Assembly (NCBI GenBank): GCA_964648715.1
Contig: CAZYNM010000006.1
Span: forward strand, 15,355 to 79,354
DNA: 64,000 nt
From: an uncultured Pseudomonadales bacterium
GTDB lineage: Bacteria > Patescibacteriota > Microgenomatia > UBA1400 > PJMF01
Direction of reading: 5' to 3'
The notes below the pieces were generated by a model, which was not told where the DNA came from, did not search any database, and saw only the letters and a program-made list of their open reading frames with translations. Shown piece by piece: positions 1 through 23,750 of the stretch (its first letter is position 1; each line of letters begins with the position of its first letter). The position numbers were made by a program, and so were the translations under genes.

Positions 1-690
1 TGAAGCTGGCTCAATAAAAATACTTAACGTGAATGGAAGTGCTGAGGTAAGCAATCTGAAAAAGATATACGGACTCAAGTATGCTGGAATATCTGCTAGG
101 TAATAAAACCTGCGGAGCTTGTCACCGACTTCTAGATACTTACTTGATTCCTTGAGGTACTCACTTTTATATGATTTATAATCATCTTTCTCTATTAGAA
201 GACCTTGATTATCGTTTTTGACAGTGAAAACAAAATTTTCTTTCTCTTTATCGAGTACATCTCTCTCATACTTTTTTAATTCTCGTTTAAACTTGATGTA
301 GTTCTTAATAAATCCAATAGGGTTGGTGCTTCTTACAAATTCAGGTTCTTTAAGATGTACTAGCTCGCTGGATACAAAGGGTTTGTTCTGAATAACTTCT
401 GCCTGAGCCTCTATAACATCCATTAATCGTTTGATTTCTGCCTTGAGGACTTCCACCACGCTATCATCTACATCTGGATATATAGAAAGTAATTGTTTTT
501 CTAATTTTTCGATATTTTCATTTTTTGCTCGTAAAAGATCACTTTCTCTTTTTAATTTTAAGAGTTCTTCTGCTTGTAGGTCACGTTCATAGAGCAATCT
601 ATTTACTTGATCATTTAAGGTATAGGTCAAACTAAAGTTTTTTATATTTTGAACTGTCACGGCGATGGAGGATTTAAGTTTCTGTATCAT
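1..690 (-). CDS. Partial CDS running off the window start. Start codon at 688-690 overlaps the stop of the upstream gene (ATGA). N-terminal ~190 aa are coiled-coil-like, followed by a segment (YLSPYIFFRLLTSALPFTLSIFIEP) resembling the N-terminal region of Gram-positive VirB4/TrsE-type ATPases. Probable 5' part of a VirB4-like T4SS ATPase gene.
   Basis: Own translation of the minus strand 690->1. ORF continues to the window edge. Sits directly after the VirB6-like gene and the 269-aa membrane gene. Confidence 0.3.
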   Translation of the reverse strand, partial: MIQKLKSSIAVTVQNIKNFSLTYTLNDQVNRLLYERDLQAEELLKLKRESDLLRAKNENIEKLEKQLLSIYPDVDDSVVEVLKAEIKRLMDVIEAQAEVIQNKPFVSSELVHLKEPEFVRSTNPIGFIKNYIKFKRELKKYERDVLDKEKENFVFTVKNDNQGLLIEKDDYKSYKSEYLKESSKYLEVGDKLRRFYYLADIPAYLSPYIFFRLLTSALPFTLSIFIEPAS

Positions 691-1496
691 CTGAGTGTCT
701 CCCTGGCAAAAATAACTAACTCTTCGTTGGATAGTGGTTTAATTGAGACATTGCAAAATGACAATCCAGATGCAAAGCGGAGCGCAAGATCATTCAGTTT
801 TTTCAATGCTTCCATCTTAGAGTGTGGATTATGTGTCTGGCACTGCACTGATAGCACAGCATAATGTCGGGTCATCATGAAATTATTTGATGTAATCACA
901 GTATTAAGCTCATTGGTGTACTGTTTAATGAGTGATTCACGTTTCTTGTCTGAGTTTTTATACAGAGAAAATATGTGCTTTGAAAAATCTGTTGTCTTGG
1001 CTTTTTCTTTTTTAACTATGAACTGTATTTGGGTGGGTAAGATATGAATTGTTTGTTTGAGCTTAACAAAAAAGTGTTCTCTATCTTGGTCATTGAGAAG
1101 TGCAATATCATGTGGCTCTATCTCATAAATTCGTGTCACGCTATTTTTACGAATAATGTGATTATCTTGTACTGAAAAATCTATGAAGTAGTTTTCCAGG
1201 TCAGTGTATCGTTTCTCCTTCTTGCTACTTTTGAAGGTAAAAGCTCTCGGTACTATCTTGTAGATAGGTTGGTTATCTATTTTTTGTGTAATAAATGAGA
1301 TAAAAAAGATTATGCCAACAAATAAAGCTGATAGGTAGTAACCCCAATTAAAAAAGTGTAGGCCATAAGTAAATACAGCATACAGTGCTAGAGCTATGAT
1401 GATGCTACCTGTCACCACAAGAACTGTGTCTGTAAAAAACAGACTTCTTAAAATGTGGGTTCTGATGTCGTCTTTATATATTCTTACGCTTTTCAT
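687..1496 (-). CDS. T4SS-associated membrane protein: two N-terminal TM helices followed by a soluble domain. Its position corresponds to VirB3/VirB8-like components.
   Basis: Hydrophobic segment at residues ~25-70. Translationally coupled to the downstream gene (overlapping ATGA). Embedded in the T4SS operon. Confidence 0.4.
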   Translation of the reverse strand: MKSVRIYKDDIRTHILRSLFFTDTVLVVTGSIIIALALYAVFTYGLHFFNWGYYLSALFVGIIFFISFITQKIDNQPIYKIVPRAFTFKSSKKEKRYTDLENYFIDFSVQDNHIIRKNSVTRIYEIEPHDIALLNDQDREHFFVKLKQTIHILPTQIQFIVKKEKAKTTDFSKHIFSLYKNSDKKRESLIKQYTNELNTVITSNNFMMTRHYAVLSVQCQTHNPHSKMEALKKLNDLALRFASGLSFCNVSIKPLSNEELVIFARETLR

Positions 1497-3249
1497 AGTT
1501 TTTATGTGAGTACATACGAATTATTGACTCACTGCCATTCTTAGCCTGGCGTTCTGCAATAACACCTTTAATACCATAGGCTTCATTTCTGGATTGTGAT
1601 AACTCAAGGAAGTTTTTAATCTTGAGTGGTGGACTCGATTTGTTGACGTATGCAAAATCAATTTCTTTACCTTCCTTTTGAGCTTTTTGCATTGCGTTAA
1701 ATGTGTGTGGGTTTGGATTAGTCTTATGAAAGGTGGAAAGATCAATGAAAGGTGCTTTTTCTAGGTTTACATGTTGCAACTTATCTTCAGGAATACCGTC
1801 TTGAACTCCCTCAGTCATTGTTGGGTAGTAGGTGGTTAATCCTGTGCGATTGTCTTCATATTTGTATGCACCGCCAGAGACAGACACGATTCCTTGTTTA
1901 GCGTTCTCGAGAGTTACACCAAAACCCTTGTTTGATAAGTTGGTAGCAAACTCAGAGTCAGGTTTTTTATTTCTAGCTGTATATATAGTAGATTCTTTAA
2001 CAGGCCTCATGTCTGGTAACTGGTCGAGAATGTCTGTTGATTTACTATCCTTTGCAGATGCAAAAAGATTTCTTGTCTTATTTCCCAAAGTTGCACTTAA
2101 ACTTTTACCAAATGCTGCATTCTTGAAGTCTTTGAAACTTGAGCTGATGGGTGTGCCAACTGCTCGAGATGATACTGCTGCAATCATATTGCCAGACATA
2201 GCCGTCCAGACATCACCAAATATCTTGGCTACCAACATATTTACACCACCAAGGAAGAACAAGAAGCCTGTATAGAAAAAAAGTAAGCCAACACTCGGGC
2301 CTTGAGCTTGTAGGATGCTAGCGAAAATATCAGTAGAGATTGCGAAACCAAGGGCAAAAGCTGGTTGTTGAATTAAGAATGTAAACCAGGTTTTAAAGTA
2401 TGTCTGTACGATGGTCTGGGTTCGTTCAGTCAATGCAAAGGGTATGACAATTGGGTAGATTACTCCTAAGAACAGCAAGGTTGCAAAGCGTATTACAAAT
2501 TGATATCCCAGGTATAAGAATCCACACAAGAGAAATAAGAAAGTGATTGCAAATAAGAATATCTGGACGATGAACTTACCGAGTGATCGGAAGATACCAC
2601 CTTGTAAGGCTACCTCAAAGGATGGAATACCAAATTTTTCTGAGTTTTCATTATTTGCGATAGCTTCCTGAGATTTATCAAAATAATCATTGAGAAAGCC
2701 AGTAAACTTCTGTGTTTCGGATATCTGCTTCACTAGTAGATTATTGAACTGAATAGTATAGGAAAGAACTGTTGGTACAGTGATAAATAAGGCTATGACA
2801 ACAATAAAACGAATGGCAAACGATTTAAGTTCATATGTATTGTCACTACCAATTTTTGTTACTGCAAAAACTGCTATAACGATGGCTAAGATTGGAATAG
2901 CTATCTGGTGAAATACGTTTCTATACTTTGTAACACCAGGTATGGTCGAGTCATCTTTTAATTTGATACTGTCAGCAAATGGGTCAGGTGTGTAGAAGAT
3001 AAAACCGCCAAGGAGTGAGTCAAAACCTTCAATAAAGCTTTTTAGTAGGATGATGATGGAAGATGGCTCATTATGTACTGAGAATTCATTACTATATTGA
3101 ACTTGAGGTGGAGGCGTGGGGGTAGGTGCTTCTTCTGCTAAAGCTATATGTGGGACAAATAAAAATGTAACGATGCTTATGAGCATCACAACGATTGTTT
3201 TCATAAAATCGCAGGAAACAATCGGTTGCCTTGATTTAGTTTGTGCCAC
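1474..3249 (-). CDS. VirB6/TrbL-like polytopic inner-membrane T4SS protein with signal peptide and Pro-rich N-terminus.
   Basis: Cleavable-looking signal (MKTIVVMLISIVTFLFVPHIALA), PTPTPPP linker, more than 6 predicted TM helices, 591 aa. Lies between the pilin-like gene and the VirB4-like gene. Confidence 0.55.
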   Translation of the reverse strand: MAQTKSRQPIVSCDFMKTIVVMLISIVTFLFVPHIALAEEAPTPTPPPQVQYSNEFSVHNEPSSIIILLKSFIEGFDSLLGGFIFYTPDPFADSIKLKDDSTIPGVTKYRNVFHQIAIPILAIVIAVFAVTKIGSDNTYELKSFAIRFIVVIALFITVPTVLSYTIQFNNLLVKQISETQKFTGFLNDYFDKSQEAIANNENSEKFGIPSFEVALQGGIFRSLGKFIVQIFLFAITFLFLLCGFLYLGYQFVIRFATLLFLGVIYPIVIPFALTERTQTIVQTYFKTWFTFLIQQPAFALGFAISTDIFASILQAQGPSVGLLFFYTGFLFFLGGVNMLVAKIFGDVWTAMSGNMIAAVSSRAVGTPISSSFKDFKNAAFGKSLSATLGNKTRNLFASAKDSKSTDILDQLPDMRPVKESTIYTARNKKPDSEFATNLSNKGFGVTLENAKQGIVSVSGGAYKYEDNRTGLTTYYPTMTEGVQDGIPEDKLQHVNLEKAPFIDLSTFHKTNPNPHTFNAMQKAQKEGKEIDFAYVNKSSPPLKIKNFLELSQSRNEAYGIKGVIAERQAKNGSESIIRMYSHKNYEKRKNI

Positions 3250-3520
3250 CTACGAATTGTTTTAATACACTGGCAATAGTTGCCGCTCCGAAAACTAAAA
3301 GACCACCGATCAAAATATTAAAAATCCAACCTTTAAGTCTTGATTTTCTTTCAGTATCATCACCGCTAGCGATAAGAGCGATACCAAGAGCTGCGATTGA
3401 AAGAGCCATTACTGGAAGAGAAAAATATTGCAGGGTTTTAACGATACCCCATAGCAGAGAATCTAAATTTGCAAACTGAATTGGTTGTGCACTGTCATAC
3501 CCTGGTATCTGTGTGTCCAT
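3236..3520 (-). CDS. Small two-TM VirB2/TrbC-like T4SS pilin-type protein.
   Basis: 94 aa with two hydrophobic helices separated by a short charged loop (GDDTERKSRLKG). First gene of the T4SS operon. Confidence 0.45.
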   Translation of the reverse strand: MDTQIPGYDSAQPIQFANLDSLLWGIVKTLQYFSLPVMALSIAALGIALIASGDDTERKSRLKGWIFNILIGGLLVFGAATIASVLKQFVGGTN

Positions 3521-3679: not shown

Positions 3680-4060
3680 TTAGTCAACAATATGTTGTTT
3701 TACTTTTTCCAATAACTGGTCAGGCGTTATATCCACTTTCACTATATACGATGACGCGCCCAGTCGCATCATGTCTTTGATGGTATTATCATTTACTAAA
3801 TTTGTTAGAAGCACAATTGGTGTTTTATTGAGCAACTTATGATCTTTAGATAAAGTAGTCATAACTTCATGACCGTCCATTTCAGGCATCATAATATCAA
3901 GAAGAATAAGATCATAACGACCAGCTTCGATTTTTTGTAAAGCATCTTTGCCGTTTGTGGCACAATCTACAACATACCCAGCATCAAGGAGTGTGGATTG
4001 ATACACTTCTCTAATTTCTTTCTCATCCTCTACAAGCAACAATATTTTTTTATTTTCCAT
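3680..4060 (-). CDS. Stand-alone response-regulator receiver (CheY-like) domain protein.
   Basis: KILLLVEDE...DLILLDIMMPEMDG...PIVLLT receiver motifs with conserved Asp pocket. 126 aa, no output domain. Confidence 0.85.
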   Translation of the reverse strand: MENKKILLLVEDEKEIREVYQSTLLDAGYVVDCATNGKDALQKIEAGRYDLILLDIMMPEMDGHEVMTTLSKDHKLLNKTPIVLLTNLVNDNTIKDMMRLGASSYIVKVDITPDQLLEKVKQHIVD

Positions 4061-4093
4061 AGTAAATGTTAAAAAAATAATTAACTAATAATG

Positions 4094-6997
4094 CTATTCA
4101 TATCGCAATGCATCCAAAGCCGATATCTTGGTGGCTCTTTTGGCAGGATAAATACCCGTTAAAAGTCCAACAATAACAGATATAGCTAAAATAAGAATAA
4201 CAAAGGTATATGGTATGAAGGTAATATCTAAAAAGCCGTAGCCTTTTGACAACGCATACGTAGAAAGGATAAACGAGGTCGCTTTGCCAGCAGCATAGCC
4301 AACAAATAAGCCACCAACACCACCCATGAAGCCCATGGTCATAGATTCAGTAAGGTAAAGATTTTCTACTTCTTGTGCTTTCATACCAATAGCTTTCATC
4401 ATGCCTACCTCATGTGTACGCTCAAGAAGTGAAACAGTCAAGGTATTTAGCATACCAAGTGCTGCAACTGCAAGAGCAACAACGCCCAAGACACCGAGTA
4501 AAAAGCGGAGAGTCGCAAATAGATTCTCGATTTGTGAGACAGTATCTACTACTGAGGTTGTTTTAAACCCTTGTAACTCAATCTGTTTTCTTGTTTGTGG
4601 TAATACCGACTGATCATTTACAACAATTTTTGCTTGTGAATAGGTTGAGATCCCCATTTGTTTAATATCGCGAAGCGGGACATATAGAATAGGTGTCTTT
4701 GTATCGGGAGTGACCCCAACGATTGTATATTCAATCGGCACTGATTCAATTTTCTTACCATCAGCAAGTAAATCTCCAGTGGCAATAAATGATATTTTAA
4801 ACTTTTTACCAACTCCTGCACTCTCTGCAATACCAAGCACTCTAAGCAAGGATTTATTGACAACAGCTTCACGAGTGATTGTATCTGGTAACTCAATCTT
4901 ACGTGTTGAACCCGTTGCAGATACACTACTTGAACCGTCAATGCTAGTAATATCTATAAATCCGGAGTCAGAGGTCTTTTGGCTTGCAGCAGCAGTTGCG
5001 ACATCTTCAGCGGTTAGTTCATTAGATATGGTAGCCTGTGCAAGTGTAGTAGAAACACCGAGTACCGATCCAGACCCATAGACTTCAGCCAAATTTATTG
5101 TTCGATCAACTTTCATATTCAATTCAGCAAAATATCCCTCTTCAGTTATTTGTTTACCATTACTATCTTTCTTCTCTTTGTATACCATTTTTCCCGACTC
5201 ATCGGTGGTGCGCTCCCAGAGAAGCACTTTACTTTGTAGCCACAAACCAAGTTCTTTGTTATCCGAAGTTTTACCTGCTGAACCAGCTTTATCATCAGGA
5301 TACGAATCTCCCCAATACTCCACTGCATCACTGACCCCTTCAACTCTTCTGGTATATCCAAGAACTTCTCCATTAACGGATGGTTTTGTACGTATACGAA
5401 CATACTCTTCGGGGTCAATAGTGTAGGTGACTTTACCAATTTCATCACCAGCAACGGCTGTTTTAAACTCACGCTGTGTAGAAACTCCAGCTACCATACC
5501 CCGATGTGTTGTGTCTGCATCAGTGATAGGAATGCCCAACTCATTACTAGAAAATATTTTCCCTTCGGCAGGTCGAATTGCTGATTCCAATAAATAATCA
5601 GCCATAACCCCGTACACAGCGACATCACTATTTGAGTTTTGGAAACTTATTTTCCCGACCACACCAACAACAGGTAGCACCTTTGATACACCGGAAATGT
5701 TGCTAAATGAAGCAACTGCTTCATCATTGAGTCTGATATTTGTTGCAACAGCGGGTGAGGCATCTATTTGTCTCATCTCTTCAAGACGTGCAACTCGAGA
5801 AATTACCAATTTTTCAAGACCATAGCCAATCGAAATTAAAAACACTATGGCTGCAACACCGATTGTCATACCGCCTACGGTTATAATGGTACGTGTTTTT
5901 TTCGCAAACATGTTCTTGAGTGATAAATCGATTAAGTCAACTCGTGAGATCGTTTTCTTATCTCGTGTTTCTAGCACTCTAATTAATTTGAAATAAAAGC
6001 TATCAACCACAGGCAAAAATTTTCGCTTTACCACATTCGGTACAAATTTTAATTTAAGTACTCCATCGCTTAATTTCTTGCCTAAATAAACAATCAGTAA
6101 TGATAAGAATCGAACTATCTGCCCAATGTTACTTAGTAAAAATGGTAAAGTTTTGCGAAGTCTAAATATATTGAGGAAAGAGAATAACCAATGAACCCGT
6201 GAAGTACGTTTTTCTTTCTTTTGTAAGCGCGTACCTGCAATACTCATTTCTTGTTTTAAAACAATTCGTTCAAGGAGTAATTGTTTTAATTCTGAAGCCG
6301 ATTTTCCAGCTGTTTCAATATTGCGAACAATGCGTCCATTAAACATTTGGATAATGCTTTTGGCATAATCCACATTGTCAATGTTATGGGTTACCATGAT
6401 GATGGTAGTACCTTTTTCATTCAATTTTCTGAAAAGCTCCATGAGCTCGATACCGCTTTGATAATCTAGATTACCCGTCGGCTCATCAGCAATAATTACT
6501 TTAGGATCAGTGACTAGCGCACGTGCCAAGGCTACTTTTTGCTGCTGACCTGAAGAAAGTTCTGTCGGGAAGTAATCTGCCCAATCGCTTAATCCAACAA
6601 TATGCAGGCAGTCATGCGCTTTAAGTATCGCTTTTTGTTTCTCAACACCCAGTAGTGATAGGGCAAATGCAACATTTTCAACAACGGTGAGCGATTTAAT
6701 CCAGTTCGGTTGCTGGTAAATCATACCTATATTTTTTTTACGAAACTCAGACCTGTCGTCTTCGCTATACACATACAAATTCCAATCAAAAAAACGAGCA
6801 TTACCACTAGTTGGTGCTTCCAACCCTAATATGACATGAAGCATAGTTGACTTACCACAACCAGAGGGACCAAAAACGATTGCAAAATCGCCATCATTAA
6901 TCTCAAGATCAACACCATGCAACACTACAACATCCTGATTTTTAACCTCAAAGGCTTTAACAATTTTTTGCAGTGTAATAATAACTCTTGGTTTCAT
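4094..6997 (-). CDS. MacB-type ABC transporter with ATPase fused to FtsX-like permease and a large extracytoplasmic domain.
   Basis: Walker A GPSGCGKST, signature LSGGQQQKVALARAL, Walker B IIADEPTGNLD at the N-terminus. C-terminal four-TM FtsX-type permease. Confidence 0.85.
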   Translation of the reverse strand: MKPRVIITLQKIVKAFEVKNQDVVVLHGVDLEINDGDFAIVFGPSGCGKSTMLHVILGLEAPTSGNARFFDWNLYVYSEDDRSEFRKKNIGMIYQQPNWIKSLTVVENVAFALSLLGVEKQKAILKAHDCLHIVGLSDWADYFPTELSSGQQQKVALARALVTDPKVIIADEPTGNLDYQSGIELMELFRKLNEKGTTIIMVTHNIDNVDYAKSIIQMFNGRIVRNIETAGKSASELKQLLLERIVLKQEMSIAGTRLQKKEKRTSRVHWLFSFLNIFRLRKTLPFLLSNIGQIVRFLSLLIVYLGKKLSDGVLKLKFVPNVVKRKFLPVVDSFYFKLIRVLETRDKKTISRVDLIDLSLKNMFAKKTRTIITVGGMTIGVAAIVFLISIGYGLEKLVISRVARLEEMRQIDASPAVATNIRLNDEAVASFSNISGVSKVLPVVGVVGKISFQNSNSDVAVYGVMADYLLESAIRPAEGKIFSSNELGIPITDADTTHRGMVAGVSTQREFKTAVAGDEIGKVTYTIDPEEYVRIRTKPSVNGEVLGYTRRVEGVSDAVEYWGDSYPDDKAGSAGKTSDNKELGLWLQSKVLLWERTTDESGKMVYKEKKDSNGKQITEEGYFAELNMKVDRTINLAEVYGSGSVLGVSTTLAQATISNELTAEDVATAAASQKTSDSGFIDITSIDGSSSVSATGSTRKIELPDTITREAVVNKSLLRVLGIAESAGVGKKFKISFIATGDLLADGKKIESVPIEYTIVGVTPDTKTPILYVPLRDIKQMGISTYSQAKIVVNDQSVLPQTRKQIELQGFKTTSVVDTVSQIENLFATLRFLLGVLGVVALAVAALGMLNTLTVSLLERTHEVGMMKAIGMKAQEVENLYLTESMTMGFMGGVGGLFVGYAAGKATSFILSTYALSKGYGFLDITFIPYTFVILILAISVIVGLLTGIYPAKRATKISALDALRYE

Positions 6998-7015
6998 TGT
7001 TGTATTAATATAAGG

Positions 7016-10000
7016 TTACTTTAAAATATCCAAAAATCCAAATATATCCGATAAATTACCAACAACCAAATCAAGTGCAGATTCAGTTGATTTTGGTGCA
7101 ATAGTAACGGTATCAATAGACTTACCTGAATTGCCTGCTTTGTCTTTTGAAAGAACTCGCAAGTGGTAGACCTTTGATGGTGTTAGGTCGGAAATTATAA
7201 CCAAATGATTCAAGGTCAAGTTGGTATCTTCTTGTGTTTTTTGAGGATAGTTTTCCCCCGTACCTTCGCCAAACTCAATCTGGGAACTGGCAGGCTCATC
7301 GGTATCCCAAGATACGATCAGTTGTGCACGGGCTTCTTGACCTGCACCAGATACAGGAGGGACTGTCGTTCCTTCAATCTTGAGATTAGATATCTGTGGA
7401 GGCCTGGTGTCTGTAGCCGTAGTAAATTTTTGGCTGTCTGATGAAGCTTCATTACCAATGGCATCTCGACCCTTAACAATCATCAAATAATCGGTTTCTG
7501 AACGTAGTCCTTTCACCAGTAATTTATGTTCACCTTTAACAAGCGCAATATTTACCTCATCACGGGCTGCACTCGTCTCACCTTGAGGATAATAGGTAAT
7601 GATAGAGGAAATCTCGGTATTAGACTGCCAAGTAACTAGTACGGTTGGTTGTGCAGTACCTCGGACTTCTTGGACACGAACATTAGAAATTTTTGGTCTT
7701 GGATAGGTTGTGAAATCAAGAATTGTACCTTCGTACTCTGAATTCTCACTATCGAAAGCATTAATTTTATAAAAATATTTAGTGCCGTCTTCAAGCCCTG
7801 TAAGCTCCATGGTATAGGTAGTTTCGCTGGTTGATGTAGCAATTTCTTTGACACCACCAAAACCGGTGGTTTTACCATAGTAAATCTTTACTTTGCTTGC
7901 ACCTTTGGAAGTGAGTTGAATGATTGCATTACTCAAACCAATATTTTTGGCAGCTACATCTTGCACCGTTGGGGAAGGACTTGTTTTGAATGTTTTTTCT
8001 TCACTTTGTCCCGTATTACCGTCTTCATCTGTCCACTTTGCACGATAATAATAGGTGGTACCCGGAGTAAGATTAGTTAAATTAATCGTATGATCCTTGG
8101 TTTGTGCTGAGTTTGATGGTTCTTCATCAAAATATGAACCAGATTTTGTACCATAGGCGATCTTGCTGTCAGAGTTCCTATCTGTCACCCAAGTGATTTT
8201 GGACTTTTTAGTAGTAATATCTGTTGCTGTTGGACCAGAAGATAATCCTGCGGCTTCAAAATACTTGCCTGTTGGCAAACCTGACACAGTGGATGACACG
8301 GCAGAACAGTTATTAGCACTATCACAAGCCTTTACACAATAATAATAATTCTGCTCGGAAAGACTCGTATCCGAATAGGATGTACCTGCAGTAGATCCTA
8401 TCTGTGTAAATGAAGAAGGCGAACCTGAACAACTTGCATTACTGGTTGATCTAAGTACTTTATAAGAACTAATACCAGCACCAATACTTTCTGGAGCATC
8501 CCATGAAATAGCCAGTTTCCAGTTTGAAGTCGCTTTGATTGAAATATCTGCCACATCTACATTGCGAGGAATACCAGGTGCAGAACCAGTATAGGCAAAA
8601 GTCACACTAGTATAAGTATCATAGTTTATATTTCCCGCTTCATCTTTTGCAACTAAATACAGGGTGTTTGTGCCGGGTTGAGTGGCAAACGCATCTTCTG
8701 CCAATGTATTGGCACCTGCTGCTGTATAGGTACAATTTGCAAGAGTAGGTACTGTGTTGATGGTATAACAGAAGCGTATGTTTCCTGCTTGGCCTGTAAA
8801 TGCTGAAGGATCATCCCAGCTAAAAGCATACGCATTGGTAGTACCATTCTCAGGCGTTACAACGAGATTGCGTGGTGCAGAAGGGGCAGTAGTATTGATT
8901 TTTAACGCATTTGAAACATAGGTATTTGATACATTGCCTGCAGCATCCCAGGTACGCAAATATACTAAGTTTGTACCCTCTGCGATGGCTGCATAGTCGG
9001 GTGTTTCCTGTGTAGCGTATGAACCATCATTCGTCAAAAGATCAGCTACGTCTTGTGTCCCTGTATGACTATCTCCGTACCAGGTACCACTTGTGCCGAT
9101 ACGATATTGCAAGCCTGCAACACCAGAATGGCTATCGCTTGGGCCATCACTGCCAGAGGATGGCCATAAAAAGGTCGTGCTTTCTGTAGCTATATAATCA
9201 CTTGGTACTGATAAAAAGGCAGGGTTAGCGGGGGCAGTATTATCAAATCTAAAATGGAAACTTGCGCTAGAACCTGCATATACATTTCCTGCACCATCTA
9301 TGGCTTTAACATTCAAATAATATGCATCATTGCTGGAAGTAAGCCACGGACTACCACGATATGAAAGTGTAGCAAAGTCTATAGAATTGGTACTTACAAT
9401 GAATTGACAGGTCGTACCAGTAGTTGAAACAGGAGAAGTGCCCAGTAGTCCCTTCGCAGTAGCAGGGTTCCCACTTTCGTCACTGCCCAAATACAAACAA
9501 TAACCAGAGATGCCAGAACCACCTACGTTATCCGCTCCTGCATCCCAAGAAAAATATGGTGCACTGCCATTTGTCCAACCATTGCTACTCATGCTTGCTC
9601 CACCTACTGTTTTTTTCATTATCACATTTGATGCATTGGTTGTTGGTGCAGTAGTATCAGTCGTGAGTCCAATTGCAATGCTCGTTATCGCAGGTAGATC
9701 CGTCCCACCAAATGCCATAATAGCCTTGACTGATATTTTTTGTGAGACGACTGGTAATGCCTGCATGGCTGTAGGAGTAAGCTCGGCTGCTGTGTTTACA
9801 TGCGTCGTGGTATTTGAGGCGGTTGCCCAAGCAGAGCCATCCCAATATTTCCATGCATTGCCACTTTGACAAGTTGCTCCATCATCTGTACAAATTTGAT
9901 ATTTCACCGAAGCATTCCCGCTGGCTGTGACATTGGCGGTAAAAGAATCCCAACTATTGACCTGACTATTACTATAGGCAGAAGTAGTATAGACGCTATA

Positions 10001-13563: not shown

Positions 13564-13691
13564 GGCAGGAATACAGGTGTTTTGTTTGCCCGTCTGAAAA
13601 AAATAAAACGGGCAGGAAATGAATATTGTGATCTATGAATCCGGAATGCATGTCCGTAAACATGCACTGCTCATTCTGGCGTCATTGATCG

Positions 13692-13803: not shown

Positions 13804-13846
13804 AGACAACCGTTCTATTCACTCCCCATATACACAGGCTATCATA

Positions 13847-15420: not shown

Positions 15421-16173
15421 TTATTTTTTTGCCAAGTACCCTGCATCTACAATTAAATTGTGCCCTGTTACCATTTTGGATTGGTTCGAGCTTAAAAATA
15501 TAACAGCATTCGCTATATCGTCGGGTTCGACAATAGACTCAAGCAATGTGCCATTAATATTTTCTTCAAGTTCTTCTTGTGGTGCTGTAGCCCAGTATCC
15601 AGCTCTAACTGCACCAGGTGATACTGAATTTGCTCGCCCCCAAGGAGCCATTAATTTGGCATAAGCCTGAGTTGAATTTATTATTGCTGCTTTTGATGCA
15701 GCATAAGTTAACGCATCATGTTGTCCACTTAGTCCATGCCTAGATGCAATATTAACAATTACACCAGTGTTCCTTGACTGCATATGCGAAATGGCATACT
15801 TGCATACAGACATAGCAGAGATCAAATTTTGTTGCAGGCTTTTCATCCACAGATCCACTTCACCATCCCACACATCTCCATCCATGTACCTGCCAGCGTT
15901 GTTAACTACAATATCAATGTGTTCAAACTCTGAGGTAGTGAAATCAATGAGCCTTTTTGCTTCTTCATCCTTGGTTAAATCTACTTGAAATACTTTAATA
16001 TCTGACCCTGCTTGCCCCAGCTCAGTAACTACAGATTGAGCACCTTCCTGATTTGTTTTATATGAAAAACAAACCTTTGCGCCTTCATGGGCAAAAGCAG
16101 CAACAGTTGCTTTACCGATACCACTTGAGCCACCTGTTACAAGTACAACTTTATCTTTTAATCCTGTTTGCAT
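15421..16173 (-). CDS. Short-chain dehydrogenase/reductase (SDR) family oxidoreductase.
   Basis: VVLVTGGSSGIGKA Rossmann motif, NNAG motif, catalytic YxxxK (YAASK). Confidence 0.85.
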   Translation of the reverse strand: MQTGLKDKVVLVTGGSSGIGKATVAAFAHEGAKVCFSYKTNQEGAQSVVTELGQAGSDIKVFQVDLTKDEEAKRLIDFTTSEFEHIDIVVNNAGRYMDGDVWDGEVDLWMKSLQQNLISAMSVCKYAISHMQSRNTGVIVNIASRHGLSGQHDALTYAASKAAIINSTQAYAKLMAPWGRANSVSPGAVRAGYWATAPQEELEENINGTLLESIVEPDDIANAVIFLSSNQSKMVTGHNLIVDAGYLAKK

Positions 16174-16194
16174 ATGTCCATTCTATCAAAAATA

Positions 16195-17088
16195 TTACTT
16201 CGCGGTTATTAGAGTTAAACCAAGTACACCTATAAATGCCAATACTATCCCAACATATTTTCGTACTGATATTTTTTCTTTTAAAATTATACGAGAAAGA
16301 ATAACAGTGAGTGCTCCATTTGTTCCTGTTATTGGTGAAGCAATTGTTGCTGGGGCAAATGAGAAGCTCAACCATAAGAAACCTGTACCCATAATATTGA
16401 ATAGACCTCCAAGTAAAGCATGTCTGTAGTCTTTGAAATTTTTTACAACACCCTTTAATGCTTTTCCTATAGACTCTCTTTCAATTTTTAGATAGGTAAT
16501 GGCTACTGGTATTTGAATTATCCCGAGAGAGAATAGAAAACTAAAATCACCAGATCTATTTATATATCCTTTTGATACTGCGTCAGATAGACCAATTGCA
16601 ACAGCTGCAATAAAAGGCCAAAGGATTCCTTTAGTAACTTTCAACTCCTCGCTAGATATTTTGTCTGGAAGGCTAGCAATAATGCTACCTAAGATAGCAA
16701 AAGCTATAAACGAAAGACTTGTAGTGGTGACAATCTCACCATTAAATAGTAGAGAAAAAATAATGGTATATACAGGATATGTTGCTAGTACCGTAGTTGT
16801 TACAGCTAGCTCACCGTGAGAAAGTGCATAGAAGACTATTGCTTCAGATAAAATTGCAGAAATAAGAGCAAATAGCATTGCTTCTGACCAGCTTACTGTT
16901 TGAGAAATTCCCATAAAAAAAGCTAAGGGCAGCCAAATAACCAAGCCAAATAGCGCATCAAACAAAAATGCAACTGAAGGTTGCATATCTTTGTAACTTT
17001 TGCGTAATGAAAGTTGTGAGAAAGCAATCAGAACGCTACACAATATTGCAAAAATTATTCCCAACATAGATATATTATATTTGAACAA
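16195..17088 (-). CDS. EamA/DMT-superfamily transporter.
   Basis: ~10 TM helices in two repeated halves. 297 aa. Confidence 0.7.
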   Translation of the reverse strand: MFKYNISMLGIIFAILCSVLIAFSQLSLRKSYKDMQPSVAFLFDALFGLVIWLPLAFFMGISQTVSWSEAMLFALISAILSEAIVFYALSHGELAVTTTVLATYPVYTIIFSLLFNGEIVTTTSLSFIAFAILGSIIASLPDKISSEELKVTKGILWPFIAAVAIGLSDAVSKGYINRSGDFSFLFSLGIIQIPVAITYLKIERESIGKALKGVVKNFKDYRHALLGGLFNIMGTGFLWLSFSFAPATIASPITGTNGALTVILSRIILKEKISVRKYVGIVLAFIGVLGLTLITAK

Positions 17089-17096: not shown

Positions 17097-17789
17097 TTAA
17101 TACCTTGGTATAGCCCTAACCACAAATTTAAGTTCGAGATCCTCTAAATCTAACAACTTCATTGCATACTTTTCTATATATTTTCGGAGCTTTTCAGTCT
17201 GGCAGTAAAAAATAATTGTTACAGTATCTTGATCTTTAAAAAATTCAAAGAACTTTTCTACCCTGGAGCGAATTGCAAACCTTGGCATACCATCTTTAAT
17301 AATTTCACAGCTGCACTGCTCAATCTGTCCGTTTTCTTCTCTGATGTATGCAAAGCTCGGTAATAAATCCCGAATGACCCCATTAACAGGGAAGTTGGTT
17401 TGAGTGTAGAATTTAAAGCCAGGCAGGTTTTGGCTTTCAAGATTTAAGTAAATATTTGCAATAGCGATACACTGATCAATAAATTGTTCTGATCTTCGAG
17501 TTTCTTGATACAGTTTTTTAATGTATTCAGATTCCAACCCCTCGGAGGATTTAAGAAACTTAATTCCATTTTTGGAGATAAAGTATATTGCTGGTTTGTT
17601 GATACCTGGTGTTTTCTCGAATATACGGACAATGTAATTTTTAGTAGTGAGGTCTTTAAGCCAGACATTAGTATTTTTAGGGTTTTTGTGTTTCAGGAGA
17701 GATTGTATCTGGATACGGTTTAGGAATCTGAATCTATAGAGAAGGAGAAGTATTTCTTTTTGTTTAGTAGTTATAGTAGGTAGTAGCAT
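17097..17789 (-). CDS. Replication-relaxation-family-like wHTH protein (plasmid/ICE maintenance).
   Basis: N-terminal LT.KQKEILLLLYRFRFLNRIQIQSLL pattern resembling the replication-relaxation family. Sits in the mobile-element context. Confidence 0.35.
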   Translation of the reverse strand: MLLPTITTKQKEILLLLYRFRFLNRIQIQSLLKHKNPKNTNVWLKDLTTKNYIVRIFEKTPGINKPAIYFISKNGIKFLKSSEGLESEYIKKLYQETRRSEQFIDQCIAIANIYLNLESQNLPGFKFYTQTNFPVNGVIRDLLPSFAYIREENGQIEQCSCEIIKDGMPRFAIRSRVEKFFEFFKDQDTVTIIFYCQTEKLRKYIEKYAMKLLDLEDLELKFVVRAIPRY

Positions 17790-18232
17790 GTTTTATAGAC
17801 CCACCTATATTCCTCCCTTACTCGTATGTATGGAGGAAATAAGTTTCTCTTCTTATTTATAAGAATAAAGAGACTAATAAATTATACTAAAATAACTTAT
17901 TTACAGGCTAAACAATTATATCAAATGCCATGGTCGGCTATGGTAATACTTTATGAATTAGTTACATATTTGTTACTTATTGCTGAAGCTGACTTGACAC
18001 AATATAATAACATCTCATTTAATTTAATCGGGTTTGATCTATTTCTGATCTATATTCGAAAAAATTAATGAAACATGCTCTTTAACTTACAACTACAAAA
18101 TTAAGCAGATAGCTTATTAACCATCTAACCACGGTGATTAGTAAGCTGTCTGCTTATCCGCAATTTGCAACAAAAGCAACAGTGCAGTAAAACCTTTAAT
18201 GTGAACGTCATAGTAACAAGGACAAGTGAAGA

Positions 18233-19113: not shown

Positions 19114-21702
19114 TTATCTTTCAACTTCAAAAATATTTTTAACCTTATCTTTTAAATGGATATTATCTCCTGAAATTGCTTGATCATTGTTTTTAAGAGC
19201 ATTTCCATATCTCTGACGTGAACAAGTAATTGTTGCATTTATGACATCAGCTGCTGGTTGTAGTTTAAAATTCTCAATCTCTCCACTAAACGTAGCCTGT
19301 GGCTGTAATGCATTGATCTTCATATAAAAATTATACGAAGGGATATTTGCCATCTGTCCTTTTTCTACTTCTGGAGCAAATACAGGCAGTAGCTTGGCTT
19401 CATCCTTTGGACTGGTGGTTCTAAAACAGATCAAAGTACCAGTATTACCGATGATTGTCTCAAGTAAGTCATTCTCTATCTGCACTGTATTTTGATGAGC
19501 CAATATCACACTCAATCTATACTTACGTGCTTCAGAAAGAATCTGTGCAAACGACATAGTAGCAAAGTTCTGAAACTCATCTATATATAAGTAAAAGTCA
19601 GCTCGCTTTTCTTCAAGTATATGTACTCTACGTAAAGCAGTAAGCTGAATTTTGGCAGTTAGAAGCCCTCCTAGGAAGTACGCTGTGTCTTCTCCTATCT
19701 TTCCTTTTGAGAGATTACAGATCAAGATTTTCTTTTCATTCATGATTGTTTCAAAATCAAGTTTGCTCTCAGTTTGATTGAGAATATTTCTAGTCATGCC
19801 TGTAGTAAGAAACCTGCCCAATTTATTGGTAATAGGTGATATCTGCTCTGCACGTTGAAATGAACCTTGCTTATCAAATTCATTCTTCCAGAAAGACTTC
19901 AAGATGTCGTCTTTTAGTAAGCTGGTTACTTTTTTGCGATAGTTGGTATTAGTCAGCAAGTCATAAATAGTAAATAGGGTGGGTTTTTCTTGCTCTAATG
20001 CCGTTAAGATCACGTTTCTCAAAATATGCTCCATTCTTGGTCCTGAATATCTTGGATCATAGAGTTTATGGAAAATTGAGATAAGCGTTGAAGTAATAAA
20101 ATCTTTCTCTCGCTGAAGTTCAACATCAGATAACCCTTTAGGAATCTCTAGTACGTTTAAGCCGATTGGGAACTCAATATCATACGGATTAAAGTAAACT
20201 ACATCTTTGACTCTCTCCTCTGGAATAACACCTAGTAAACGCTCTGCTAAATCGCCATGTGGATCAATAACAGCTAGTCCATTACCTTTTTGCATGTCTT
20301 GATGGATCATGTGCATGAGCAAGGTTGTTTTTCCCGTACCAGTTGCCCCAATGATATAGGCGTGTCTTCTTCGCTCCTCAAGGGTTAAGCCAATCTGTGT
20401 AGTAGTTTCTCCATAGGTATTGGTGGCAAAGGTAATATCTAGCTCAAGGTCATTTTTCTTGAGAGTAATAGGTGCAGGGAGCTTAGGACTTTTTACTTGT
20501 AGTAAGTCCTCTGTTTTAGTTGTTGCTGTATAAGGAAAATGGTACAAGGCAGAAAGCTCATCTACCGACAAGACCATATTATTAGTAAAAAATGGGAACC
20601 GAGTTTTAAATTGTGAGTAGTACAAGTTGTTCAGTGTTTTAGATCTAATAATCTTGGCTAAAGATCGTTTTATCTCAATACCTTGATGTGGTGTGTTAAA
20701 AGTATCGAATGAGGCAGTAATACCTTTGAGGCGTTCAACTGCTTTTTCTTGAGAATGTGTCTGGATATGAATTCTTGCTGTGGTTTCAAATAATGGCTGA
20801 GTGATCTTATTGGCTATACTATTATATAGTTCTGTTTTTGTTGCACCTAGGCCATTAGAAGTATACTTTGCCGTTGATCTGAATAACCAAACAGGAAAGG
20901 CTTCTTGAGTATTACTAACTAGCCATGAAATGACTGTCACAGGTGTTAAAGCAATGAATGCAACGGAACTTGCGAGTAAGTTCACTAGGTATCTACCACT
21001 GTGCGGTTCTATCAGGTCAGTAATGTCTTCATTATTGAGAAATTTTTTAGTGATCGCAGTAATAAAGCTGAGTGTCCCGGAGTGCGTGCTTTCATGAATT
21101 GATGAGCAAACGAACTGAAGGCTGATTACTTCATCAGCTTGTAGCTTGGTCATGTGGGCGGTGAGATATGCCAGTGGGTCATATTGATTTAAGGTTTCTT
21201 GTGAAGCAATCGGATATATAAACAACTTCTTTAACTGTAACTCTCGGATCAAGGAGTATAACTTGGGATTACTTTGTACATGGTCACTAACTTCTTTGAT
21301 CTCAATACCCGGTAAATATGCTAGTAAGGTCTTTCTAATGCTGGGGGTTTCTTCTAGTCCAACACGTAAGATAAATCGAATACCATCATTTTTATTTGAA
21401 ACCAGTTCATAACTAATACTCTTTGTTAAGCCAAGAAGTTTATCTCGCCAATGATGAGGCTTTTCAAGTGAGTGCAAGATCGTAAATAGTTGTGCTGTAG
21501 ATAGTGGTGATTTGAGTGTTCGAGCAGTTGGCTTGATTTCAAGGAATAAATACTTTCTGCTCAAGTATTTTTTAATACAGATGAGTTTGAGGGTGATCTT
21601 AGAGAGTAAATACCCCACCGCAATAGATAGCAAAATATAAATTGTTATTTCAGAGAATAAATAGGGCGGGAATATATTAGATATATCCACAGTATTTAGC
21701 AT
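19114..21702 (-). CDS. T4SS ATPase of the VirD4/TraG coupling-protein type (VirB4/VirD4 superfamily) with N-terminal membrane anchor.
   Basis: Two N-terminal TM helices. Walker A GATGTGKTT followed by VIDPHGDL (close to the coupling-protein DPKGE motif). Walker B YLYIDEFQNF. VILAHQNTVQ motif. Confidence 0.6.
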   Translation of the reverse strand: MLNTVDISNIFPPYLFSEITIYILLSIAVGYLLSKITLKLICIKKYLSRKYLFLEIKPTARTLKSPLSTAQLFTILHSLEKPHHWRDKLLGLTKSISYELVSNKNDGIRFILRVGLEETPSIRKTLLAYLPGIEIKEVSDHVQSNPKLYSLIRELQLKKLFIYPIASQETLNQYDPLAYLTAHMTKLQADEVISLQFVCSSIHESTHSGTLSFITAITKKFLNNEDITDLIEPHSGRYLVNLLASSVAFIALTPVTVISWLVSNTQEAFPVWLFRSTAKYTSNGLGATKTELYNSIANKITQPLFETTARIHIQTHSQEKAVERLKGITASFDTFNTPHQGIEIKRSLAKIIRSKTLNNLYYSQFKTRFPFFTNNMVLSVDELSALYHFPYTATTKTEDLLQVKSPKLPAPITLKKNDLELDITFATNTYGETTTQIGLTLEERRRHAYIIGATGTGKTTLLMHMIHQDMQKGNGLAVIDPHGDLAERLLGVIPEERVKDVVYFNPYDIEFPIGLNVLEIPKGLSDVELQREKDFITSTLISIFHKLYDPRYSGPRMEHILRNVILTALEQEKPTLFTIYDLLTNTNYRKKVTSLLKDDILKSFWKNEFDKQGSFQRAEQISPITNKLGRFLTTGMTRNILNQTESKLDFETIMNEKKILICNLSKGKIGEDTAYFLGGLLTAKIQLTALRRVHILEEKRADFYLYIDEFQNFATMSFAQILSEARKYRLSVILAHQNTVQIENDLLETIIGNTGTLICFRTTSPKDEAKLLPVFAPEVEKGQMANIPSYNFYMKINALQPQATFSGEIENFKLQPAADVINATITCSRQRYGNALKNNDQAISGDNIHLKDKVKNIFEVER

Positions 21703-21836: not shown

Positions 21837-22166
21837 ATGTTAAGCCAAGAATTGACACTTTTTGATATACCAGAAACTAAGCTCCAGACTAAGAGTACTA
21901 CTTCTACTGCTAAAAGACCTGAAATATCTCATAAGCAGTACGCTTCTCTCGACAATGCACTTTCTGCAATCTTCCCAACTACTGAGCAGGATAATATCAT
22001 TACAAAAACTCGTCGTCATTTAGGTGATATAGGCAAAGAAATGTCAGATACAGAGATAAAAAATTTAGCTAGTGAATTTCAGTTTTTGATTGATAGTTGG
22101 TTAGACATGTTTGAAAAAGATACTTTTCAAGGCAAAACATTAAAAGAGATTATGGGAGGCAAATAA
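21837..22166 (+). CDS. Small hypothetical protein translationally coupled to the serine recombinase. Possible recombination directionality factor/regulator.
   Basis: Stop at 22166 and recombinase start at 22168. No recognisable motifs. Confidence 0.4.
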   Translation: MLSQELTLFDIPETKLQTKSTTSTAKRPEISHKQYASLDNALSAIFPTTEQDNIITKTRRHLGDIGKEMSDTEIKNLASEFQFLIDSWLDMFEKDTFQGKTLKEIMGGK

Positions 22167-22167: not shown

Positions 22168-23739
22168 ATGAGTACAAATAATAATGAATCAGTAAAAACA
22201 GCGGTTATATATTTAAGAGTTTCTACTGAAGAACAGGTGGATAATTTTTCATTGGATACTCAAGAAGATATTTGTCAAAAGGAAGCTATTAAGCGCGGGA
22301 TTGAAGTTATCAAAGTTTTCAGAGAGGAAGGTAGATCAGCCAAAACAATCACAGGTCGTCCAGTATTGATTGAGATGCTAGAGTACTGTAGAAAAAACAA
22401 GAAAAAGATTGATGCAGTCATAGCGTATCGAGTAGATCGTATCTCACGCCAGACACAAGATTATTTAGCTATCCGAAGAAAGCTTACAGAGTGCGGTATA
22501 ACTTTGATATCTGCTACTGAACCCACTGGTAATAGCCCTACAGAAAAACTTGTTGAAACGATTCTGGCAGGTTTTGCACAACTAGATAATGATGTCAGAA
22601 GTGAACGCACAAAGAATGGAATGAGAGCAAGATTCCTGGCTGGTCTTCCAAATGGAAAAGTGCCTCTTGGATATCTAACTATAGATGGCTGTGCAGTCAA
22701 AGACCCAGAAAAATGGGATCTTGTAAAAAAAGCATGGGATTTAATGGAGACAGGTACGAAAACACTGAATGAAATTGCAGTACTTATGAATGATTGGGGT
22801 TTAAGGAATGTAATTGGAGGCAAAGAATGTATTTTCAGAGCTCAGACTGCAAGTAGACTATTTAAAAATAAGTTTTACGCAGGTGTGTTGACTTCACCAC
22901 GTTACCCCGATGAGGCTAAAGGTCAACACTTACAAATGATCTCAGAGGCTCAATACTATAAGGTGCAAGCCGTTATTGCTGGTAGAAATAACAGTATTAA
23001 TATTCCTGTTGTTAGAAGGAATAGAAACAACTCTGATTTTCCATTAAGAAGAATTATTAAGTGTGGTGGTTGTGGTGCACCATTTACAGGTGCATGGAGT
23101 AAGGGCAAGCGTGCAAAGCATGCTTATTATTTCTGTAGAAGTAGGTGTGGTAAACCATCTGTCAGAGCGTATGATGTTGATTTTTCAGTGGTTGAATTAC
23201 TCAGGAGAGTAACACCCAAGCAAGAAACACTAAATGCATTTATTGCCTTACTAAGAGCCAACTATTATAAAAGAGTTGCCAGTCTACAAAAGAAAAAAGA
23301 ACATGCTGATGTTGAACTAAAGAGACTACAATCCCTTAGAAAAGGATTAGTCGAGAAAAATCTATTAGGTATATATAGTGATGAAATATTTAAAGAACAA
23401 AATAAGATAATTGAAGAGCAAATCATAACCCTTGAGATAACAAAGGACGATGCTTTGCTTTCCAAATACAATCTCGAAGCAATAATTGCTTTTATGAAGG
23501 ATAAATTTGCTGATTTAGGAAAAACGTATCAAGAATCAGATATTGAGCAGATAAAAGTATTGTTGTGTTCGATATTTGACTCAGAACTCACTTGGGACTA
23601 TTCTGGCATTTCGAACACCCAAATTAATGCGGTATATCAATACATTTATGACTTTGAAAGTGTTGATATCGCAAATGGTGACCCCATGGAGAATCGAACT
23701 CCAATTACAGGGATGAAAACCCTGCGTCCTAACCGTTAG
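22168..23739 (+). CDS. Large serine recombinase (integrase).
   Basis: N-terminal resolvase domain with catalytic Ser in AVIYLRVSTEEQ and the YRVDRISR motif. Recombinase domain. Zinc-ribbon cysteines CGGCG...CRSRCG. Coiled-coil C-terminus. 3' end overlaps tRNA-Glu. Confidence 0.85.
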   Translation: MSTNNNESVKTAVIYLRVSTEEQVDNFSLDTQEDICQKEAIKRGIEVIKVFREEGRSAKTITGRPVLIEMLEYCRKNKKKIDAVIAYRVDRISRQTQDYLAIRRKLTECGITLISATEPTGNSPTEKLVETILAGFAQLDNDVRSERTKNGMRARFLAGLPNGKVPLGYLTIDGCAVKDPEKWDLVKKAWDLMETGTKTLNEIAVLMNDWGLRNVIGGKECIFRAQTASRLFKNKFYAGVLTSPRYPDEAKGQHLQMISEAQYYKVQAVIAGRNNSINIPVVRRNRNNSDFPLRRIIKCGGCGAPFTGAWSKGKRAKHAYYFCRSRCGKPSVRAYDVDFSVVELLRRVTPKQETLNAFIALLRANYYKRVASLQKKKEHADVELKRLQSLRKGLVEKNLLGIYSDEIFKEQNKIIEEQIITLEITKDDALLSKYNLEAIIAFMKDKFADLGKTYQESDIEQIKVLLCSIFDSELTWDYSGISNTQINAVYQYIYDFESVDIANGDPMENRTPITGMKTLRPNR

Positions 23740-23750
23740 ACGATGGGGCC
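23676..23750 (-). tRNA. tRNA-Glu (anticodon UUC), with encoded CCA.
   Basis: Hand-folded cloverleaf: acceptor GGCCCCA/TGGGGTC, anticodon stem CAGGG/CCCTG with loop TTTTCAT, T-loop TTCGATT, discriminator A, then CCA. Confidence 0.8.

Follow-up and report, generated by a model that had tools for sequence, protein, structure and literature searches.

A probable conjugative element of a Microgenomates-type bacterium carries a diversity-generating retroelement as exchangeable cargo

Introduction

Whom does a hypervariable surface protein serve when its gene stands among conjugation genes: the element that carries it or the cell? This question is raised by a 64,000-nt stretch of DNA (the window; contig CAZYNM010000006.1, positions 15,355-79,354 of the forward strand), in which a diversity-generating retroelement (DGR) and its 1530-aa target lie between type IV secretion system (T4SS) genes and genes for a coupling protein and a recombinase. 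A first-pass annotation of the window had placed the DGR on a conjugative element and had proposed that the element hypervaries its own mating adhesin or, in an epibiont of the candidate phyla radiation (CPR), that host-cell attachment is varied. Our data indicate that the locus is probably an integrative and conjugative element (ICE) of a Microgenomates-type CPR bacterium, integrated by a large serine recombinase (LSR), and that the DGR is an exchangeable cargo cassette diversifying an exported protein, most likely one for binding. Carriage on a conjugative element was thus borne out, in that the DGR lies inside a bounded integrative element with a conjugation gene set; it did not fall outside the element, nor were homologous DGR loci confined to non-mobile contexts.

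Window positions are prefixed with w where they could be confused with those of other contigs, and L-numbers denote the related contigs and loci that were compared with the window. Translations of open reading frames (ORFs) were scanned with Pfam and NCBIfam, and bit scores were compared with the curated cut-offs. L001, a contig 98% identical to the window, reaches 6.1 kb further left and stands in for the left flank of the window. A VirB4 alignment scan with one genome per species gave 19 loci in a close clade (at least 68% identical); the slot 5' of the pilin gene TrbC was readable in 17 of these, to which all counts of loci out of 17 refer.

The element and its ends

The block was described at first as AT-rich and ending at a tRNA. 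Indeed, GC is lower over w1-24000 (0.33-0.45, mostly 0.35-0.41) than across most of the remaining window (0.43-0.47), and a tRNA-Glu gene closes the block. An Rfam search over the low-GC block found no RNA family besides tRNA. The features at this end are as follows.

23676..23750, minus strand: tRNA-Glu(UUC), the integration target, from a tRNA scan; the shared core TGGTGACCC (23676-23684) is found again at the other element end
22168..23739, plus strand: LSR (Pfam Resolvase, Recombinase and Zn_ribbon_recom)
21837..22166, plus strand: 109-aa protein (p109), always 5' of the recombinase; homologues adjoin the LSR in L029, L074 and L176

We found that the LSR ORF overlaps tRNA-Glu on the opposite strand, its final 21 codons being antisense tRNA-Glu. 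On the recombinase side the end of the tRNA gene reads ...ATGGGGTCACCA followed by TTTGCGATATC, the same bases as at the left end, and the core common to both element ends is 9 nt long in L001 (GGGTCACCA). Four related elements (L001, L011, L095 and L015) are alignable up to ...GGGTCAC, approximately 150 nt past the start of a PLDc_2 gene, and are fully divergent thereafter; beyond this left end the flank of L095 is ordinary chromosome, with genes for MscL, a sugar nucleotidyltransferase, GH15 and GH57. Since the four elements share this divergence point and the core stands at the tRNA-Glu end, we place the element, with sequence as the guide, from about 4.1 kb left of w1 to w23675, a predicted span of about 27.8 kb of which the window would hold the right-hand 23.7 kb. 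The tRNA end given in the first-pass annotation therefore stands, with the LSR ORF overlapping the tRNA. The element does not begin at w1: the GGGTCAC core marking the other end lies about 4.1 kb further left.

A scan anchored on PyrG showed that the order DnaE-PyrG-L19-YraN-tRNA-Glu is kept in dozens of related metagenome contigs. After tRNA-Glu, the relatives that could be read that far contain unrelated sequence, often with a terminator-like hairpin. In L103, a 63%-identical recombinase overlaps tRNA-Glu exactly as in the window. The recombinase ORFs of L006 and L007 likewise overlap tRNA genes, in their case tRNA-Leu.

The junctions are seen, and recombination within the 9-nt core would allow the LSR, at the extreme right end, to integrate the element at the 3' end of tRNA-Glu. 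An excised circle (attP) would join ...GCAAAAGGGTCACCA to TTTGCGATATCAAC.... With the element ends joined in this way (w22168-23739 with 23676-23750, and L001 14379-14627), the LSR ORF instead reads on through 46 codons and terminates 1 nt short of the start codon of PLDc_2, and recombinase and PLDc_2 would form a single transcription unit only in the excised circle. The extension across attP is open in four elements; of the differences counted in a test over 49 codons, 5 were synonymous and 9-13 non-synonymous, which amounts to weak constraint. In L074 (14026-16310), p109, recombinase and PLDc_2 are actually contiguous. No family match to p109 was found in Pfam or NCBIfam; our guess is that it is a directionality factor.

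Genes for conjugation and DNA processing

The T4SS, DGR, ArdC, coupling-protein and recombinase genes named in the first-pass annotation were all recovered by Pfam near the positions given there. Its inventory was incomplete in one respect, as a candidate relaxase (Replic_Relax) was not listed. The genes outside the DGR cassette are the following.

1..690, minus strand: VirB4 ATPase, of which the window start leaves the first 230 codons; the full 702-aa gene in the 98%-identical L001 matches Pfam DUF87, AAA_10 and P-loop_TraG
687..1496, minus strand: TrsD/TraC-like membrane protein of 269 aa, resembling the VirB4 N-terminal domain (NCBIfam VirB4_plasma, E 1.7e-12; PF26593 TraC-like on a homologue)
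1474..3249, minus strand: VirB6/TrbL-like polytopic membrane protein (weak Pfam TrbL match, E 1.2e-4, 22.4 bits against a cut-off of 25.9)
3236..3520, minus strand: TrbC/VirB2-type pilin (Pfam TrbC, 37.6 bits against a cut-off of 27.9)
14451..15233, plus strand: ArdC-like protein, part of the ICE backbone (marginal Pfam ArdcN match, 22.0 against 22.6 bits; HELAH (HExxH) motif; 95% nt identity in L011)
17097..17789, minus strand: Replic_Relax protein, candidate MOBC-superfamily relaxase (PF13814, 32.3 bits against a cut-off of 25.3)
19114..21702, minus strand: VirD4/TraD-type coupling protein (Pfam TrwB_AAD_bind, TraG-D_C and T4SS-DNA_transf, all above cut-off)
15421..17088, minus strand: short-chain dehydrogenase/reductase (SDR) and EamA transporter, extra cargo that is not in L011

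The left extension of L001 contains the full VirB4 gene followed by genes for an M23 peptidase, a 260-aa protein, a small ORF, a helix-turn-helix (HTH) protein and a PLDc_2 nuclease-family protein. The full mating-channel operon, consisting of TrbC pilin, VirB6-like, TrsD/TraC-like, VirB4 and M23 peptidase genes, is kept in 17 loci, and the position of the VirB6/TrbL-like gene is kept in 17 of 17. The coupling protein also matches NCBIfam conju_CD1115 and SXT_TraD, below cut-off, and its cluster at 90% identity comprises 12 members, whose contigs reach 1.37 Mb. As to the Replic_Relax protein, PF13814 has been equated with the MOBC relaxase superfamily by Coluzzi et al. (PMC5357655).

The nearest plasmid VirB4s, from Bacillus, Clostridium and other monoderms, are 25-30% identical. 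Within the clade, genomes labelled Roizman-, Shapiro-, Davies- and Levyibacteria and WWE3 encode VirB4s that are at least 68% identical. At least one genome, CAYOFQ01, encodes two VirB4s approximately 30% identical to each other (L020 and L075), as one would expect where a mobile system has joined a core one.

We infer conjugation, excision and ligand binding from these sequences. In the transfer that we propose, the Replic_Relax/MOBC-type protein would nick an origin of transfer (oriT), for which a 202-nt segment described below is the candidate, and the VirD4-type coupling protein would pass DNA to a monoderm-type channel made of VirB4, the TrsD-like and VirB6-like proteins, the TrbC pilin and the M23 cell-wall hydrolase. 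Protection of the incoming strand would fall to the ArdC-like protein.

The DGR and its target protein

The DGR consists of the following parts, with which its target is listed.

13847..14188, minus strand: bAvd accessory protein (Pfam bAvd, E 1e-20)
13688..13803, minus strand: template repeat (TR), 87% identical to the variable region, with 39 adenines and 12 AAY codons
12406..13563, minus strand: DGR reverse transcriptase (RT; Pfam RVT_1, E 1.2e-22; IGNLTSQ and YMDD motifs in the translation)
10373..10488, minus strand: variable region (VR), target residues 374-412, paired with the TR in a repeat search
7016..11608, minus strand: DGR target of 1530 aa (Pfam fn3, Pur_ac_phosph_N and weak FGE-sulfatase)

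TR and VR form a single 116-nt pair with 15 differences, and the mutation pattern is adenine-only: 14 of the 15 differences stand at TR adenines and the other is a C/T difference in the 3' conserved end. In the relatives' own TR/VR pairs, 16 of 17 differences are at adenines. The 12 AAY codons allow up to approximately 1e18 protein variants. Homologues of the RT number in the thousands in CPR genomes. The DGR would copy TR RNA with adenine-specific errors and write the copy into residues 374-412 of the lectin-fold domain.

A giant adhesin-like target with Fn3 repeats had been proposed, and the VR does lie inside the 1530-aa Fn3-rich ORF. The protein begins with an N-terminal hydrophobic segment, followed in its N-terminal third by a variable domain of C-type-lectin/FGE fold and then by about 1100 residues of Fn3-like repeats. 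A search of the PDB by sequence with the variable domain gave marginal matches only (E approximately 0.2), so a fold search was needed. An AlphaFold model of residues 60-440, built with 49 homologues, reached a predicted local distance difference test score (pLDDT) of 76 and a predicted template modelling score (pTM) of 0.80. Its best PDB match was TaqVP, a Thermus DGR variable protein (E 3.4e-9), followed by FGE, Mtd and TvpA. The model and these fold matches place the VR at the C-terminal end of the C-type-lectin-fold domain. Pfam and NCBIfam scans of the target returned Fn3-like and FGE/lectin-fold matches only, and no match to a known mating adhesin. In more remote homologues, the variable domain is often preceded by a fused type IV prepilin N-terminus (PF07963), which fits surface display.

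Two contigs from different samples, L001 and L002, start at w10394 and w10395, that is, 21-22 nt inside the VR and just past its invariant 3' end. Such starts are expected if assemblers break on a hypervariable stretch, and they suggest, as far as contig ends can, ongoing DGR activity. Many database homologues of the variable domain are approximately 380-480 aa long, lie on short contigs and end near the VR, and the target of L006 is split at the VR into ORFs of 404 and 1137 aa; assemblies evidently break or frameshift at this place. In L176, a second bAvd and a shorter RT (7696-9072; 298 aa, 36% identical to the RT of the window) lie directly 5' of the main Avd-RT pair and may be a tandem or decayed second DGR.

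Most DGRs are found in prophages, and the variable domain also resembles phage Mtd; we asked whether this DGR, too, could belong to a prophage, with the target as a tail-fibre-like receptor-binding protein. Pfam scans of the tested ORFs between the element ends found no capsid, portal, terminase or tail gene. The DGR is flanked by T4SS and DNA-processing genes instead, and the target begins with a hydrophobic segment and is partnered by an ATP-binding cassette (ABC) transporter. We rejected this reading because these scans found no phage structural genes, and we attach next to no probability to it.

The DGR cassette is separable from the conjugation genes

The cassette and its remaining genes are listed here.

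3688..14247, minus strand: DGR cargo cassette of 10.6 kb (bAvd, TR, RT, HepT/MNT, target, ABC/MacB, response regulator), delimited by homology with L006-L010
11737..12417, plus strand: MNT/HepT toxin-antitoxin pair (Pfam NTP_transf_2 and HepT-like; AbiEii instead in L006)
4094..6997, minus strand: fused ABC ATPase and MacB/FtsX-type permease (Pfam ABC_tran, MacB_PCD and FtsX)
3680..4060, minus strand: receiver-only response regulator (Pfam Response_reg, E 4e-26)

Close relatives of the RT (81-85% identical) led to contigs L006-L010, in which the order is LSR, small ORF, HTH, bAvd, TR, RT, toxin-antitoxin, target, ABC/MacB, response regulator, 76-aa ORF and PLDc_2. DNA homology between these contigs and the window extends exactly from w14247 to w3688. 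The cassette proteins of the window and of L006/L007 are 77-88% identical, while the flanking recombinases are only 24% identical. In L007 and L008 the element has tRNA-Leu on one side and tRNA-Val on the other (then tRNA-Phe in L007); the approximately 14 kb between these tRNA genes leaves no room for a T4SS. The L007 element contains neither relaxase nor coupling protein, and the only direct repeat at its ends was an uninformative 8-mer.

The reverse case, a T4SS without the cassette, was also found. L011/L012 and L095 encode VirB4s 97-98% identical to that of L001, and their backbone is 87-95% identical at the nt level, but they have no DGR cassette. The backbone of L011 and L095 resumes at the equivalents of w14279 and w3608 with different cargo between: a single 1012-aa Peptidase_S74/H-lectin protein in L011/L012 and DISARM-like genes in L095. 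Across the clade, target and ABC genes stand directly 5' of TrbC in 5 of 17 loci (L015, L021, L025, L031 and L032; in three of them with the response regulator), and the other 12 species-level loci have no DGR target in the slot. Further identified contents include type I restriction-modification, Z1/HATPase, GmrSD, Mrr, a metal P-type ATPase and a beta-helix/Fn3 protein (L020). These varied contents of the same slot indicate that the stretch between the DNA-processing genes and the pilin gene, as judged from related loci, is a cargo hotspot of which the DGR cassette is one occupant. Cassette and T4SS are thus separable in both directions, and with the cassette as swappable cargo the conjugation machinery does not appear to need it.

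The cassette itself is held together more tightly. The ABC/MacB gene follows the target in every relative examined, and the response regulator, co-inherited with the target, is found in L007, L015, L025 and L032. From this strict co-inheritance, transporter and regulator may serve export, anchoring or control of the target. The ABC/MacB protein has an unusually large extracytoplasmic region (approximately residues 370-830). We know of no system composed of such a target, an ABC/MacB protein and a response regulator. Consensus scans for promoters and terminators over w3300-14500 returned no more sites than shuffled sequence and therefore carry little weight.

Is the diversified Fn3/lectin-fold protein nonetheless the mating-pair adhesin of the ICE, hypervaried to widen its recipient range, as was proposed at first? 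The target, ABC and response-regulator genes are co-directional with the TrbC-VirB4 operon and lie immediately 5' of it, an adjacency repeated in the 5 of 17 loci. Monoderm T4SSs rely on surface adhesins, and the PrgB type was not found in Patescibacteria (PMC12102498). Two other slot occupants, the S74/H-lectin protein of L011 and the beta-helix/Fn3 protein of L020, are likewise large and possibly surface-exposed. However, backbones with 97-98% identical VirB4 lack the cassette, the 12 slots without a DGR target hold mostly restriction-modification, other defence or a metal pump, and the cassette is kept in a 14-kb element without a T4SS. Backbone homology, including a promoter-like site for TrbC, begins 3' of the cassette at w3608. 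In Bacteroides, deletion of the variable protein of an ICE-borne DGR left transfer efficiency unchanged (10.1101/2024.11.15.621889). We therefore did not retain the mating-adhesin claim and consider this explanation improbable; given the modularity of the cassette (slot variation and carriage without a T4SS), a dedicated or required mating adhesin is unlikely.

Judged from the cassette's distribution, the most likely role of the target is attachment: it would be a self-diversifying protein of benefit to the carrier cell. Variable host-cell attachment in a CPR epibiont would be a more plausible function than mating adhesion. As exchangeable cargo, the cassette would give the recipient cell a self-diversifying binding protein for attachment to a changing partner or substrate, and the ICE and its small T4SS-less relative would spread the cassette between lineages.

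The same DGR-target pair with the same T4SS genes, which the first-pass annotation had thought worth seeking in other genomes, occurs in L015, L021, L025, L031, L032 and L176. The last of these is diverged (RT approximately 50% and coupling protein 52% identical) and keeps the order LSR, p109, coupling protein, Replic_Relax, Avd, RT, target and ABC. Of the distinct cassette lineages that could be placed, 7 are on this ICE family and 2 are on T4SS-less elements.

Evidence for and against a mobile conjugative element

Several observations weigh against an ICE with exchangeable cargo. Most T4SSs of Patescibacteria, a survey by Quinonero-Coronel et al. argued, are chromosomal and not conjugative: VirB4 is present in approximately 80% of genomes with coupling proteins rarely near, relaxases occur in only 103 genomes (58 of 109 relaxases being MOBC), and a non-conjugative role was proposed (PMC12102498). 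The left junction was taken from the 98%-identical L001, not from the window's own contig, and L001 keeps a low GC on the far side of the proposed left end. Genomes lacking the insertion were to be compared, and unoccupied tRNA-Glu sites do exist in relatives, but these are only 70-77% identical in PyrG. An exact-match search of JGI metagenomes for the reconstructed attB or empty site gave nothing, the closest PyrG there being 77% identical, and no excised form or exact empty site was found. Because of this distance and the missing exact site, presence and absence at tRNA-Glu are shown at the family level only. Among the genes, the ArdC and VirB6 matches are under curated cut-offs. The relaxase assignment is a single Pfam domain, an NCBIfam scan of the Replic_Relax protein gave no match, and the PF13814 family has been read instead as a PD-(D/E)XK nuclease-fold regulator (PMC3424549). 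Lastly, the cassette stands beside the T4SS operon in 5 of 17 loci and beside DNA-processing genes in the diverged L176; given this recurrent linkage, a functional tie between cassette and ICE is possible.

Two alternatives were weighed. In the first, the T4SS is of a non-conjugative, host-interaction type, and the locus is a mobile island for epibiosis in which variable adhesin and secretion act jointly on a host cell. Saccharimonadia cannot grow as epibionts without their T4SS genes, and relaxases are missing from most T4SSs of Patescibacteria (PMC12102498); the prepilin fusions of variable-domain homologues suggest that attachment filaments display the domain. Against this, the neighbours of the T4SS here are a coupling protein, MOBC-type and ArdC-like proteins and a terminal recombinase, features that the survey ties to a minority with conjugative potential. 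The VirB4 clade extends at no less than 68% identity over several CPR orders, a second VirB4 of about 30% identity coexists in at least one genome (CAYOFQ01), and cassette and T4SS are separable. We regard this alternative as rather unlikely.

The second alternative, a decayed and immobile mosaic of old mobile-element pieces with the DGR in a chromosomal junkyard by a tRNA, is very improbable. Extra cargo (SDR and EamA here; an insertion sequence in L015), the low GC beyond the proposed left end and the lack of an excised form would suit it. However, the long ORFs are all intact, at least 19 species-level loci share the gene order, as do many near-identical contigs from different samples, the ends match a shared core at the tRNA, and in another species (L103) this tRNA-Glu site is taken by a homologous recombinase. 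Our data thus favor a mobile ICE with the DGR cassette as its cargo over both alternatives.

A candidate origin of transfer shared with the small element

The T4SS-less elements share one further segment with the ICE.

17746..17947, minus strand: 202-nt segment 5' of the Replic_Relax gene and covering its first 44 nt, a candidate oriT or regulatory region

This segment is 98% identical in L006-L010 (L007 9052-9253; L006 3235-3437), compared to approximately 76% for the adjoining DGR cassette. It is more alike in these elements than in the much closer ICE L011 (97%), an anomaly without explanation. Its DNA fold z-score is -2.6, and an Rfam search of the segment found nothing credible. The copy in L006-L010 looks like the leftover of a deleted relaxase gene. 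The segment could also be a shared oriT, and if this is real, the 14-kb T4SS-less element would be mobilisable.

We give little credence to a further reading built on this segment, namely that the ICE family uses the DGR-diversified lectin-fold/Fn3 protein for partner recognition and so continuously re-tunes its partners for mating or attachment, while the 14-kb relative keeps the 202-nt oriT and rides the same channel. Were this true, a hypervariable adhesin would shuttle between a conjugative and a mobilisable element.

Comparison with known systems

DGR-bearing ICEs are already known from Bacteroides and Legionella; new here is the modularity of the cassette, in a phylum whose conjugative elements are barely described. 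Prior work identified 41 DGR-bearing ICEs in Bacteroides, which are integrated at tRNA-Lys and diversify type V pilus tips (10.1101/2024.11.15.621889). As in these, the DGR and a surface-adhesin target are cargo of a tRNA-integrated ICE and would spread horizontally with the element. That the variable protein is not needed for transfer is experimental in Bacteroides, while here we infer it from modularity. The Bacteroides elements use a tyrosine integrase, tRNA-Lys and tra genes of the Bacteroidota type, and their target is a type V pilus tip, whereas the present element has a serine recombinase, tRNA-Glu, a monoderm-type T4SS, a VirB2-like pilin and a candidate relaxase of MOBC type. Its target is a 1530-aa lectin-fold/Fn3 protein with a co-inherited MacB-type transporter and response regulator, and its host is a CPR bacterium. 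In Legionella pneumophila, Arambula et al. 2013 reportedly described a DGR in ICE-like islands, which are integrative elements with a T4SS; there, too, the diversified protein is said to be displayed on the surface. That system is said to differ in its T4SS class, its lipoprotein target with a C-terminal VR and its diderm host. That Legionella ICEs also carry DGRs is stated in PMC4010831, which cites that work.

Like the T4SSs surveyed in Patescibacteria (PMC12102498), the present one pairs VirB4 with an adjacent TrsD-like gene, includes a VirB2-like pilin and an M23 peptidase, and is kin to the monoderm MPF-FATA type. Unlike most of them, it shares a bounded island with a coupling protein, MOBC-type and ArdC-like proteins and a terminal recombinase, and since these mobility genes lie within a single island, the element belongs to the possibly conjugative minority of that survey. 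Streptococcal integrative and mobilisable elements (IMEs) of class 8 carry the same trio of MOBC (PF13814) relaxase, VirD4 coupling protein and serine integrase (PMC5357655), in a similarly compact order beside the integrase. They are without a mating channel and mobilisable only, whereas the element here adds the VirB4 operon.

The fold of the variable domain is that of TaqVP (5vf4), TvpA (2y3c) and Mtd (1yu0-4), with the VR at the C-terminal end of the domain and closing in a GFRCA motif. Unlike in these proteins, the variable domain is not at the protein C-terminus but in the N-terminal third, and about 1100 residues of Fn3-like repeats follow. Our literature search found no paper combining DGR, CPR and T4SS.

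The locus leaves the understanding of how DGRs or ICEs work unchanged. It offers a concrete, bounded and likely conjugative element in a Microgenomates-type CPR bacterium, in contrast to the mostly chromosomal, non-conjugative T4SSs of the survey. It also suggests one route by which the DGRs common in CPR, with their targets, might pass between lineages: a 10.6-kb cassette in a hotspot otherwise largely filled with defence genes. Lastly, it provides defined parts, namely a serine recombinase with reconstructed attP and attB, a candidate oriT and the trio of target, transporter and regulator.

Other features of the window and its relatives

A second low-GC stretch (w50000-53000, 0.36-0.38) lies amid housekeeping genes beside IleRS. 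It contains an ABC exporter (49234-51153) and a 417-aa ORF (51342-52595) without a Pfam match. Many of the CPR-like species-representative contigs (L015, L019-L026 and others) are titled 'uncultured Gammaproteobacteria'. Since their gene content and relatives point to Microgenomates/Patescibacteria, this title looks like placeholder taxonomy.

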